A stretch of DNA of 50,493 nucleotides from a virus (taxonomy: Duplodnaviria; Caudoviricetes), in the IMG/VR virus record IMGVR_UViG_3300035661_000090, positions 1 to 50,493 of that record, one strand, 5' to 3'. The position numbers were made by a program, and so were the translations under genes. Positions 4,054 through 8,171 of this stretch are shown here, piece after piece. The notes under the pieces were generated by a model, which did not search any database, was not told the DNA's origin, and was given only the letters and a program-made list of their open reading frames with translations. How positions within the stretch are numbered: the stretch's first letter is position 1; every line of letters starts with the position of its first letter.

Positions 4054-4361
4054 AAACATTCGCCGAACGATTTGAGGAGGAGTTTGAGCGGTTTTGCAAA
4101 ACTTGCTTTGAAGGCGAGCCGGAAGGCGAATTTAAGGATCAATTGCAGATCGCGTTTTACATCGGGGCACTCGTCAGCGACACGTTTTCAATCAAGTGCG
4201 TCAAGTTAAAGAAAGGAGGCGAGGAGCAATATCGTAGCATGTGGCGTCACATTACAGACAAGGTGCAATATCTCGCCAAGTCCGAAGTCGAGCGACGCAG
4301 CAACGAGCCTTGCGACATCTTGAACCTGGACGAGCAGCAAGCGAAATACGAGGAGAATTGA
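4050..4361 (+). CDS. Hypothetical protein
   Basis: ATGA overlap; AFYIGA motif. Confidence 0.7.
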   Translation: MKTFAERFEEEFERFCKTCFEGEPEGEFKDQLQIAFYIGALVSDTFSIKCVKLKKGGEEQYRSMWRHITDKVQYLAKSEVERRSNEPCDILNLDEQQAKYEEN

Positions 4362-4365
4362 TATT

Positions 4366-4845
4366 GTGAAATTTAGCAAGAAAGAGCAGGCGGCAATCGT
4401 AGCGATCGCACGAGGCGGCGAGACGATGAGCAAGAGGACGAAAGCACGCAAGCCGCAAGTCGGCCCGACCGAGAATCAAGTCAAAAAATCATTTCAAGAT
4501 TTCGCCACGCAGCGAGGCGTTTTCGTCTGGCGATGCAATTCGGGTAGCCTCGTTTTCAATCGAGCAGATGGCTCGAAAGCGTTCCTCGACCTCGCCCCAA
4601 CAGGAACGGCGGACGTGATTGGATTATTGCCCGATGGGCGATTCCTCGGCGTCGAGGTCAAACGCCCGGACAAGTGGCCAACTAAGGAGCAGATAGCTTG
4701 GATGCAACGCGTCAACAAAAACAACGGCGTAGCAATCTGGGCCGACAATCTTGCGACGCTCGACCGCTTGCTCAAGCACGTGCTCGCCGGGGGACGCGTT
4801 GTCGTCTCGGACTATGGCAGGATTGAAACGATCCCAGCGAAGTAA
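4366..4845 (+). CDS. VRR-NUC domain nuclease (possible Holliday-junction resolvase)
   Basis: ENQVKK...GTADVIG..DGRFLGVEVKRP...TKEQIAW...GVAIWA. Start could be 4426. Confidence 0.85.
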   Translation: MKFSKKEQAAIVAIARGGETMSKRTKARKPQVGPTENQVKKSFQDFATQRGVFVWRCNSGSLVFNRADGSKAFLDLAPTGTADVIGLLPDGRFLGVEVKRPDKWPTKEQIAWMQRVNKNNGVAIWADNLATLDRLLKHVLAGGRVVVSDYGRIETIPAK

Positions 4846-5214
4846 TTCACGACCCACGAACCCAACGCAAGGAACGACAATGACCGAGCAGAACAGCGAC
4901 GAGTAGACGACGAACGCGAACGACGACGCGTCCACGATCAATCGAATATCAATTGGTTGAGAACGCGGACCGAAGCACTTGCGAAAGATGCGGTCATTAC
5001 GTTCGGAACGTCGTCCGCGTCGCTCGTCGAAAATCGCATATATCAAATCCTGTACGATTTCATATATGCGATTTTCGTTGGCGAGAACGTCATGAAAACC
5101 GATGAGCGGCAATTCTGGATTCTGGACAAACTCGCCCCAGGAAATATTGACGCCGATCGCATCGAGTCATAATATATATTTGTTGATGTCGTTCGGGGGG
5201 ACAACCTCAGCACG

Positions 5215-5648: not shown

Positions 5649-5690
5649 ACGCCCTTAGGTGTGAAAGCATCTAAGGGCGTTTCTTATTTA
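5649..5690 (+). terminator. Rho-independent terminator preceding repeat copy 1
   Basis: ACGCCCTTAGGTG/CATCTAAGGGCGT stem followed by TTCTTATTT. Confidence 0.75.
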
Positions 5691-5897
5691 CATATGATCG
5701 ACGAGCAGAGATGTTTACGCTTTATCTTGGGTGTACGCTCGTGCACGAAAAACGTCGCAAAAAACAATCCGAAAAATACAGAAAAAATATCGCCGCACTA
5801 TTTACACGCAAAACTAACATCGGTAGTATAACTATCGTAGTTAGTCGATGCGACTAGCGACAACGATCAAAACTAAGCGAACGGAACACGACCATGA
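5676..5897 (+). repeat. ~222-bp direct repeat, copy 1 (terminator tail + promoter + leader to ATG)
   Basis: Near-identical to 7949-8171 from GGCGTTTCTTATTTAC to GAACACGACCATGA. Confidence 0.95.
5801..5829 (+). promoter_or_regulatory. Sigma70-like early promoter
   Basis: TTTACA-17bp-TAGTAT with an A-tract upstream; TAGTCG-atg-CGACTA inverted repeat at 5842-5856; conserved in copy 2. Confidence 0.75.
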
Positions 5898-6355
5898 GCG
5901 ACAAGATGCGAAGCGTTGCCCTCTTTATCGATGCGATAGAGCAGAACGAGGAGCGAATTGACAACAACGAGAAAAGGAACATGCGGCTTCTCAACGACGC
6001 GATCGAGAGCGATGATCTTTCCTATTACATTCGTACGTATGCCCAACTTGCAGTCGCTGTTAAATCCGAAAAACAAGTTATTAAAACTGTTTACAAGATG
6101 GTGCGAAGCGTTGCCGCCCCGCGAGAAGTCGCGGAAATGCGAATGGTACTGGAAGGGTTCCTCGTCAAGCTACGCAAGCAATTTCAGGAGGCCGCGCGTC
6201 AGTCAGACGAGAATTGGTCGAACGATTACGAGCGTGCCGCTGCGAAAACAAAGCGTAACGTTACCGTTGCGTTATATATTGATCTGATCGAATCCCTGGA
6301 ATTCCTCTGTGCATCAACGATCAAAATCGACGTTGATGAAAATTGGAAATCATAA
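5894..6355 (+). CDS. Hypothetical helical early protein
   Basis: Starts exactly at the end of the promoter repeat. Confidence 0.8.
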   Translation: MSDKMRSVALFIDAIEQNEERIDNNEKRNMRLLNDAIESDDLSYYIRTYAQLAVAVKSEKQVIKTVYKMVRSVAAPREVAEMRMVLEGFLVKLRKQFQEAARQSDENWSNDYERAAAKTKRNVTVALYIDLIESLEFLCASTIKIDVDENWKS

Positions 6356-6364
6356 CGGGCGTTG

Positions 6365-6419
6365 CCCGTCCGCCCCTGAGTCGGGGGCGCTGATGAGTCG
6401 CAACGAGCGACGAAACGGG
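6365..6419 (+). ncRNA. Hammerhead ribozyme, type III (predicted cleavage after GUC at 6370)
   Basis: Stem III CCCGU(6365-69)/ACGGG(6415-19); C6370; stem I CGCCCC/GGGGCG; core CUGAUGA(6390-96); stem II GUCGC/GCGAC; GAAA(6412-15). Intergenic. Confidence 0.92.
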
Positions 6420-6456
6420 AATAGACCAACGTCAACGCAACGCGGAGAACACGAGC

Positions 6457-7470
6457 ATGGCACACGACTTGAACATTGAAAACGGCCGGGCGTCGATGGC
6501 GTACGTACGCGGTGAAGGCGCACCCTGGCACGCTCTGGGGCAAGCGGTCGAATCGGCCATGACGTGGGAAGAGGCGTACGTTCAAGGCGGACTTGACTGG
6601 AACGTTGATCGGGTCAAGATGCAAACAGTCGGCGAGTATCGTTACGCGATACCCAACCGCGTTGCGCTCGTTCGCTCCGACACGAAAGCGGTTCTAGGTA
6701 CTGTCTCGTCGCAGTATATCCCGATCCAGAATCATGAGGCGTTCGGCTTGCTCGACTCGCTCGTGGCCGACGCGGGATTGCGCTATCACACCGTTGGAGC
6801 GCTGGGCAAGGGTGAGATCATTTGGTTGCTCGCGAAAGTTCCTGATCCCATCGTGATCAAAGATGTCGATGTTGTCGAAAAATATCTCCTTTTGACGAAT
6901 CAATTCAACGCGAAACGAGCGATGCGAATCATCTGGACGCCGACGCGCGTCGTTTGCCAGAACACGCTCAACCGCGCTCTTCAGGAGGGGCATAGTTCGG
7001 GGGTTGCGATTCGTCACCGTGGCGACATCGCTGCACAATTCAAAGAAGCACGACAGATTCTCGGGCTGGCGAATCGCTACTTTGATTCCTTTGAGGACTC
7101 AATCAACAAGCTCGCAAATCACTACCCGAAAAAAACGCAGCTAGACAAATTTTTCAAAACGCTCTACCCGGACCCGAAGGACAAGAAAGACGGCACGACG
7201 TCGCTGGGAACGAAAGCGCAAAACACGCGGGACATTTTGTTCGGTCTATTCGAGAACGGGATCGGCAACGACATGCCCGAGATTCGCTACAGCACTTGGG
7301 CGGCCTATAACGCGGTGACTGAGTACGTTGACCGTCATCGCGCTCGCAAGAGCGGCGAGACGACACGCCAGCAGGACGCCAATTCCTTAAAGTCCTCGTG
7401 GCTCGGCTCGGGAGCGAAAATCAAGGAATCAGCGTATAAAGGCGCGTTAGCAATGGCGGGCGTCAACTGA
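6457..7470 (+). CDS. DUF932 / TIGR03299-type phage-plasmid protein
   Basis: MAH...PWHALG...LDWNV...YIPIQNHEAF...TPTRVVCQNTL...TWAAYNAVTEYVD family motifs. Confidence 0.85.
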   Translation: MAHDLNIENGRASMAYVRGEGAPWHALGQAVESAMTWEEAYVQGGLDWNVDRVKMQTVGEYRYAIPNRVALVRSDTKAVLGTVSSQYIPIQNHEAFGLLDSLVADAGLRYHTVGALGKGEIIWLLAKVPDPIVIKDVDVVEKYLLLTNQFNAKRAMRIIWTPTRVVCQNTLNRALQEGHSSGVAIRHRGDIAAQFKEARQILGLANRYFDSFEDSINKLANHYPKKTQLDKFFKTLYPDPKDKKDGTTSLGTKAQNTRDILFGLFENGIGNDMPEIRYSTWAAYNAVTEYVDRHRARKSGETTRQQDANSLKSSWLGSGAKIKESAYKGALAMAGVN

Positions 7471-7531
7471 TCGATCGACGACCAGGCGGGTCGACGTTCG
7501 GCCCGCCGACGTTTTTACGAGGGAGAGCGCC

Positions 7532-7920: not shown

Positions 7921-7962
7921 GCCGGGCTCGCCAGACGTCGGCGGGCTCGGCGTTTCTTATTT
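7921..7962 (+). terminator. Rho-independent terminator preceding repeat copy 2
   Basis: GCCGGGCTCGCC/GGCGGGCTCGGC stem (with G-U pairs) followed by GTTTCTTATTT. Confidence 0.7.
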
Positions 7963-8171
7963 ACATATGATCGACGAGTAGAGATGTTTACGCTTTATCT
8001 TGGGTGTACGCTCGTGCACGAAAAACGTCGCAAAAAATAATCCGAAAAAATACAGAAAAAATATCGCCGCGATATTTACACGCGAAACTAACATCGTTAG
8101 TATAAGGATCGTAGTTAGTCGATGCGACTAGCGACAACGATCAAAACTAAGCGAAGGGAACACGACCATGA
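7949..8171 (+). repeat. ~222-bp direct repeat, copy 2, with promoter TTTACA-17bp-TAGTAT
   Basis: Near-identical to 5676-5897. Confidence 0.95.

Follow-up and report, generated by a model that had tools for sequence, protein, structure and literature searches.

A hairpin that begins in an upstream stop codon competes with stem III of a predicted phage hammerhead ribozyme and may cap its cleavage product

In the window, the name used here for the whole stretch of DNA that was analysed, a predicted hairpin that begins within the stop codon of an orphan reading frame takes up one strand of stem III, the 5' one, in a type III hammerhead ribozyme. The stretch is an entire IMG/VR virus record (50,493 bp; completeness 100%). 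Accessory hairpins between an upstream stop codon and stem III are common in phage hammerheads, and the hairpin in the window would be the local form of this element, shifted so that it lies wholly on the 5' strand of that stem. It is read here, tentatively, as the product-capping hairpin of phage hammerheads, which in its shifted position would, as a result of the shift, also brake cleavage. This account is set against three others: that the overlap was selected to couple cleavage to translation, that it is an evolutionary by-product, and that the hammerhead is inactive.

Layout of the locus

The locus carries the following features.

5801-5829, plus strand: promoter-like site TTTACA-17-TAGTAT, a weak call from a consensus scan in which 2 sites were found against 1.8 expected
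5894-6355, plus strand: orf153, an orphan open reading frame of 153 codons, whose stop codon TAA (6353-6355) shares one base with the start of the hairpin
6355-6369, plus strand: competing hairpin, with 5' arm ACGGGC (6355-6360), loop GUU (6361-6363) and 3' arm GCCCGU (6364-6369)
6365-6419, plus strand: type III (SCG) hammerhead ribozyme, from a custom covariance model and the fold
6444-6447, plus strand: GGAG, a likely ribosome-binding site 9 nt 5' of the DUF932 start codon, judged from sequence
6457-7470, plus strand: DUF932 gene, for a TIGR03299-like phage/plasmid protein (Pfam PF06067, E 2.5e-55; PHROG 1221)
7921-7951, plus strand: terminator-like hairpin with a T run, called purely by consensus match

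The reading frame of orf153 holds 165 open codons before its stop. The protein had no family match in Pfam or PHROG, and a database search returned solely orf153 itself. Its codon-usage score per codon was 0.19 in frame and -0.17 and -0.38 in the other two frames, comparable to the 0.13 to 0.21 of the other ORFs scored in the window, the training set for this score having included DUF932, the sole named family among the ORFs scored. On codon usage, orf153 looks to be a coding sequence. The DUF932 gene would be the first ORF on the 3' cleavage product, and its protein has 1862 homologues, the nearest being P0002 (57% identity) and P0003 (56% identity). Among the homologues listed, the two with an organism name both belong to the Planctomycetota (Planctopirus and Tautonia, 46-47% identity), which is a hint as to the host and not a finding. 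An exact-peptide search of viral contigs with the DUF932 protein of the window found none, a blastn search with 5800-7500 found nothing among phage records, and a metagenome-contig search with P0003 reached a best identity of 45%. A general linkage between hammerheads and DUF932 genes was considered and rejected, with a hammerhead core plus stem II at 0 of 151 DUF932 loci (80 viral, 71 metagenomic). In three hammerhead loci, a DUF932 gene lies 0.7-4.6 kb from the hammerhead.

A transcript spanning orf153, the hammerhead and DUF932 may, from weak consensus matches, start at 5801-5829 and end near 7921-7951. The promoter-like site falls within the 5' copy of a 220-bp direct repeat, which is present in two copies only (5676-5897 and 7949-8171; 91-98% identity). 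Each copy contains the tail of a terminator-like hairpin together with a promoter-like TTTACA-17-TAGTAT, and each leads into the start codon ATG that opens a small orphan ORF (at 5894 and at 8168). Upstream of the repeat, an ORF at 4366-4845 gave weak PHROG matches to VRR-NUC and endonuclease.

Identity of the hammerhead

The original prediction placed a hammerhead at this site with CCCGU as the contested strand, and this is borne out by direct reading, since CCCGU (6365-6369) pairs with ACGGG (6415-6419) as stem III. The remaining parts are the triplet GUC (6368-6370, with C17 at 6370), stem I (6371-6389), CUGAUGA (6390-6396), stem II with strands GUCGC and GCGAC (6397-6411) and GAAA (6412-6415). 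A type III core was defined by CUGANGA and GAAA boxes, the pairs G10.1-C11.1 and A15.1-U16.1, and an NUH cleavage triplet; the window has CUGAUGA, GAAA, G6397-C6411, U6369-A6415 and GUC at these places. In both the MFE fold of 6364-6420 and the model alignment, stems I and II are closed by loops and stem III is open, and the cut is predicted between C6370 and C6371. A custom covariance model, trained on 112 non-redundant viral type III hammerheads with the window excluded, aligned to 6365-6419 over its full length (1-51) at 57 bits (E ~1.5e-11, on a rough calibration). This was the only real covariance-model match within the window, where core-pattern and covariance-model scans found no second hammerhead. 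The bare two-box core pattern occurs once in the window against 0.42 expected; the full architecture is not expected by chance. Loop I (UGAGUCG) is similar to the UGUGU/UGAGU loop that is common in the set, and loop II is AACGA versus the common AAAA.

At the Rfam gathering cut-off (RF00008, 48.5 bits) the window was missed, and 14 control genomes were also without hits. In E-value mode, the single match within the clan was Hammerhead_II, at 20.3 bits and aligned to 6348-6406, an alignment that takes the upstream hairpin for a closed stem III and puts AUAA at the position of GAAA. A type II (GSC) identity was rejected, as AUAA (6352-6355) replaces GAAA and 6345-6351 does not pair with 6397-6401. 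The hairpin was also considered as an intrinsic terminator and rejected, being followed by CCGCCCC with no U run and not being called in the terminator scan. Judged from its sequence, 6365-6419 is probably a working type III hammerhead, which would split the orf153-DUF932 message. Four DNA runs contain this stretch, and among the runs listed for 5900-7400 none is of RNA.

Competition between the hairpin and stem III

The arms ACGGGC (6355-6360) and GCCCGU (6364-6369) form six Watson-Crick pairs, beginning in the TAA stop codon, as had been predicted. The hairpin and stem III both need CCCGU at 6365-6369, and the hairpin is transcribed before the 3' strand of stem III, so that the claims of mutual exclusion and of an earlier-forming hairpin also stand. 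The hairpin alone has a predicted energy of -8.7 kcal/mol. Taken in isolation, 6364-6420 adopts the three-way hammerhead fold (-28.2 kcal/mol), and with the upstream bases included (6340-6430) the MFE fold adopts the hairpin (-35.6 kcal/mol). Within 6350-6425, the hairpin state lies at -31.5 kcal/mol versus -28.2 kcal/mol for the ribozyme state, with pair probabilities of 0.999 for 6357-6367 in the hairpin and 0.0003 for 6367-6417 in stem III. The nearest-neighbour model prefers the hairpin by about 3-4 kcal/mol. When the penalty was computed in a wider context it came to 3.9 kcal/mol in the window, and it was as large or larger in 25 of the 144 listed type III hammerheads described below.

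Along the best path found, the two states interconvert by exchanging strands step by step, over a barrier of 10.7 kcal/mol out of the hairpin and 7.4 kcal/mol back. Given a pre-exponential factor assumed to be 1e6-1e7 per second, barriers of this height would imply exchange within seconds or less, and the hairpin would then act through equilibrium. A two-state estimate of ~3.3 kcal/mol, from nearest-neighbour energies that disregard the tertiary contacts of the ribozyme and that give the hammerhead as MFE fold in merely 20% of the 144 listed natural hammerheads, suggests that the hairpin would cut the folded ribozyme fraction by about two orders of magnitude. In this model, cutting probably needs the hairpin to open, perhaps through the action of a ribosome.

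Hairpins beside stem III in phage hammerheads

The hammerhead of the window was compared with a set of phage type III hammerheads. Two viral-contig scans without any constraint on the upstream sequence, each giving at least 119 loci, supplied most members, and the set was completed by five from a stem II-specific scan and by the window. The final set comprised 144 non-identical type III hammerheads that passed the checks on stems I, II and III among the matches listed; many of the loci are related, and the counts are not counts of independent events. The stem II-specific scan itself gave 47 loci, nearly all of them type I hammerheads, with only L067 informative. In the type I hammerheads L120-L165, stem II is nearly invariant (GUCGC-UGAAAAUU-GCGAC), and many of them start a few bases from a stop codon.

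The 30 nt directly 5' of stem III had a median folding energy of -12.9 kcal/mol, versus -4.0 kcal/mol in a control segment 100 nt further upstream (n=143, matches listed). An energy of -8 kcal/mol or lower was reached in 75% of these 143 listed hammerheads versus 10% of the controls (Wilcoxon p = 7e-21). In 90 of the 144 listed hammerheads, the 3' end of the hairpin is at most 2 nt from the stem III boundary, an arrangement that will be called flush. In the flush class, the median gap from the upstream stop to the hairpin is 6 nt, and the gap is 4-8 nt in 57 of 88 among the matches listed, the spacing being counted for upstream ORFs of at least 60 codons. At seven loci (L008, L025, L065, L111, L407, L414 and L415), the stop (TAA or TAG) falls 11-18 nt into the called flush hairpin, at or near its loop and for most of them in the loop, so that the upstream ORF extends through the 5' arm.

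A hairpin placed on stem III itself is found less often. Its 3' arm covers at least 4 nt of stem III in 10 of the 144 listed hammerheads. A strict rule required perfect Watson-Crick arms of at least 6 bp, a loop of 3-8 nt and an end at U16.1 or C17. Seven of the 144 listed hammerheads qualified (the window, L067 twice, L068, L107, L405 and L420), whereas 500 shuffles of the upstream sequence yielded 0.59 on average (sd 0.76) and never more than 4. A looser rule (RNAfold, at least 5 bp, G-U allowed) gave 8 of 144 listed versus a mean of 5.25 (maximum 12) in 20 shuffles, which is no enrichment. The hairpin ends exactly at U16.1/C17, the new 3' end, in the seven strict cases, as their selection required, and in the five that were checked by hand. 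In six of the seven strict cases, the overlap hairpin replaces the flush hairpin; the exception, L068, retains a stronger flush hairpin whose arm is shared with the competitor, and has no dedicated competitor. The overlap design is rare. For one subclass, defined by ACGG 3-10 nt upstream and a 10-nt stem II, the viral collection was scanned completely; this returned 4 loci with 6 hammerheads, among which only L107 has a dedicated competitor. A scan for GACGG..CCGTC..CTGATGAG gave at least 121 matches, with three valid hammerheads among the matches listed, all of them already known, and a scan of genome contigs found no further type III overlap case, 56 of its 74 rows being without stem I and chance-like.

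The L067 record (34 kb, 86% complete) contains exactly two hammerheads by the model, L067a and L067b, both of the overlap type. At 4289-4897 on the minus strand, they flank a single ORF of 158 codons, with start codons 9-10 nt after stem III, and cleavage at both would thus free a monocistronic RNA. The L067a hairpin (4883-4897; ACGGGC-AAC-GCCCGU) is the exact reverse complement of ACGGGC-GUU-GCCCGU in the window, which with a 3-nt loop is possibly due to chance. Within the 11-kb locus, no protein match between the phage of the window and the L067 phage was found at 1e-5.

The same hairpin word is also characteristic of another hammerhead type. A search of viral contigs for ACGGGC-loop-GCCCGTC-stem I-CTGATGAG gave 111 non-identical hits among the matches listed, and in 110 of these ACGGGC-loop-GCCCGUC, followed by stem I and CUGAUGAG, forms the closed stem III of a type II hammerhead, with GAAA immediately 5' of ACGGGC; the exception is L067a. 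In the type II family L549-L666 (matches listed), the stem III hairpin CGGGC/GCCCG often comes just after a stop codon, and L552, L578, L584 and L609 carry two or three type II copies a few hundred bases apart. The 5' product of type II cleavage ends in the same hairpin, so that all these designs share a hairpin at the 3' terminus: in type II, flush type III and the overlap class alike, the upstream RNA is left with a hairpin at its end. This suggests that phage type II and type III hammerheads serve to generate 3' ends that are defined and capped by a hairpin while transcription goes on.

A product cap that may also act as a brake

Under the favoured reading, the hammerhead would cut the orf153-DUF932 message after C6370. 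Before cleavage, the hairpin would rival stem III and slow self-cleavage in vivo; after cleavage, it would close on the released strand. The upstream mRNA would then terminate as a blunt hairpin bearing a 2',3'-cyclic phosphate, the 3'-terminal hairpin of this product having a 1-nt overhang, C6370. Closure of the hairpin would drive product release, block re-ligation and protect the 3' end. Any agent that holds the 5' arm open would relieve the brake, and the obvious candidates are ribosomes terminating at UAA 6353-6355, a relief that is viewed here as a side effect and not as the selected purpose. Several points count against this reading. A flush hairpin already caps the product at no cost, so the overlap either has a further reason or is an accident, which argues against capping as its only aim. 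In addition, the presence of the overlap at both L067 hammerheads, with stops within 2 nt, looks like design, and the stops of the overlap class lie closer to the hairpin than those of the flush class, as set out below.

Translation and the upstream stop codon

Gating by translation, as raised in the original prediction, is the main rival reading. It is possible, with less confidence than is given to the cap, that the overlap was selected for gating by translation, the ribozyme being locked until the ribosome finishing orf153 covers the 5' arm. By the detailed form of this proposal, which is held to be just as doubtful, the covered 5' arm would free CCCGU for ACGGG 6415-6419 and cleavage would follow upstream translation. 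On the broadest version, to which only a minor share of belief is attached, the window, both L067 ribozymes, L107 and L420 would be natural translation sensors, in which a terminating ribosome unlocks stem III and the hairpin later caps the message.

The geometry is consistent with such a role, as the stop lies 17-23 nt before the cut in all five of these hammerheads. Counted from the first base of the stop, this distance is 18 nt for both the window and L067a, 21 nt for L067b and 22 nt for L107, and the tandem TGA stops of L420 have their first bases 23 and 17 nt before the cut. In L067a, the GA of the stop TGA forms the first two bases of the hairpin arm. The gaps between stop and hairpin (-1, -2, 2, 2 and 4 across these five hammerheads) are smaller than those of the flush class, with a one-sided Mann-Whitney p of 0.003 (0.007 when each phage is counted once), in samples that are tiny and non-independent. 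Nevertheless, the stops of the flush class adjoin their hairpins too, as the 4-8 nt gaps among the matches listed indicate. The overlap is present at both hammerheads of the L067 phage, the only two that it has, which also favours gating. However, upstream of L342 and L405, which have the overlap, there is no ORF that reaches 60 codons, and their relatives L321, L388 and L427 do not have the overlap.

Measured from the first base of the P site, the leading edge of the ribosome is at about +11 for the helicase site and about +15/16 by toeprint. A ribosome with the stop codon in its A site would span the entire 5' arm, with the greater part of the stem III strand lying beyond it. In a model in which the bases under such a ribosome were forced to be unpaired, the probability of stem III in the window rose from 0.025 without a mask to 0.92 with the mask edge at 6362; at 6365, the usual toeprint edge, it was 0.09, and at 6368 it was 0. 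Masking raised the probability from 0 to 0.23-0.29 in L107 and from 0.0003 to 0.28-0.33 in L420, but both L067 ribozymes stayed near 0 and remained unfolded under the mask. The mask model thus permits the gating idea and does not decide it.

There is a precedent in phages, where group I introns need translation of the upstream exon, up to a stop a short way into the intron, for efficient splicing, as described in the accessible part of that report (PMC3073962). Set against this are the rarity of the class, with L107 as the only dedicated competitor in the complete scan of one subclass, and the existence of a simpler role as a 3'-end hairpin on the cleavage product. Relief by the ribosome fits the geometry of the window and the four other cases, would be unnecessary for some overlap hairpins and would concern few lineages. 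If gating were true, this would be the first case known of a small self-cleaving ribozyme that senses translation, and a polycistronic mRNA would be cut only after translation of its upstream gene.

Origin of the overlap

An unlikely account is that the overlap is an evolutionary by-product with no selected role. ACGGGC would then be a remnant; its source might be a 5' block G like that of type II (GAAA-CGGGC) or a flush hairpin that a deletion has shortened, and the ribozyme would function adequately because tertiary contacts outweigh the hairpin. In terms of the block scheme S, C and G, as set out in the available portion of its source (PMC10085705), the window would be G'-S-C-G with a dead 5' block G. 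The alignment of the Rfam type II model, with AUAA for GAAA, agrees with a leftover of this kind, as does the GAAA found directly before the same word in 110 of the 111 listed hits. The hairpin penalty of 3.9 kcal/mol is not extreme among the listed hammerheads, and the overlap is sporadic among lineages, both of which speak for a by-product. However, stem I and loop UGAGUCG of the window fit the type III family and do not resemble the type II hits, in which stem I is long, so that a simple type II origin is unsupported. Moreover, perfect hairpins of 6-7 bp are ~12-fold above shuffles among the matches listed, and the L067 phage holds two independent-looking cases, both of which speak against a leftover.

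Although the window scores below the Rfam gathering cut-off and none of the 151 DUF932 loci elsewhere has an upstream hammerhead, an inactive hammerhead, whether a motif that arose by chance or a defunct copy that the hairpin keeps locked for good, is most improbable, as every core position is canonical, all three stems are present, the independent phage model gives a strong match and the full architecture, unlike the bare two-box core, is beyond chance.

Relation to known systems

The preferred reading remains that of a product cap which also brakes cleavage. This locus and a handful of others provide a compact natural construct of ~80 nt, comprising stop codon, competitor hairpin and ribozyme, whose roles are separable. 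The wider pattern of flush hairpins may outweigh the single locus in importance.

Intergenic hammerheads of phages and prophages have been proposed, in the accessible portions of the reports, to process mRNA into products of different stability (Perreault et al. 2011, PMC3088659; PMC6765202). Like those hammerheads, that of the window is canonical and lies between genes on a polycistronic phage transcript. In the main text of PMC3088659 the terms 'stop codon', 'terminator' and 'additional hairpin' are absent, 'upstream' appears once, and no competitor hairpin on stem III is described. For the hammerheads of bacteria and phages, the available part of the later source describes the biological role as still open (PMC6765202). 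No paper on a competitor hairpin abutting a stop codon on a hammerhead, or on hammerheads with DUF932, was found in a search of main texts from largely open-access journals, and no description of a module of stop codon, flush hairpin and type III hammerhead was found in the literature examined.

The type II CGGGC/GCCCG hammerheads (110 of 111 listed) share with the window the hairpin word, GUC, a stem I, CUGAUGAG and a 5' product that ends in a hairpin. Unlike them, the window has AUAA for GAAA and no stem II formed from the ends, and its working block G lies 3', so that the hairpin competes with catalysis rather than serving it.

Competition by an upstream structure is known from other ribozymes. 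In the antigenomic ribozyme of HDV, an upstream pairing, AltP2, modulates cleavage (PMC2396440, in the text available). There, as in the window, a natural upstream structure excludes a helix of the ribozyme, and in HDV it sets the cleaved fraction, with a choice between two fates having been proposed. HDV differs in being an RNA agent of animals with another ribozyme class, and its scheme, as given in that text, involves neither the stop codon of an ORF nor a ribosome. In engineered hairpin ribozymes with an upstream AltH1, the competitor likewise modulates cleavage, folding first and blocking assembly, and branch migration between AltH1 and the helix is fast in vivo, according to the accessible part of that study (PMC2817708). 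AltH1 is, in contrast, part of a synthetic construct in a yeast mRNA and is not natural.

The td group I intron of T4 provides a further likeness. What is prevented in td is mispairing between exon and intron, with no dedicated hairpin that shares a strand of the catalytic helix in the scheme of the text available, but there too a ribosome at a stop codon beside a ribozyme prevents unproductive pairing and promotes catalysis (PMC3073962).
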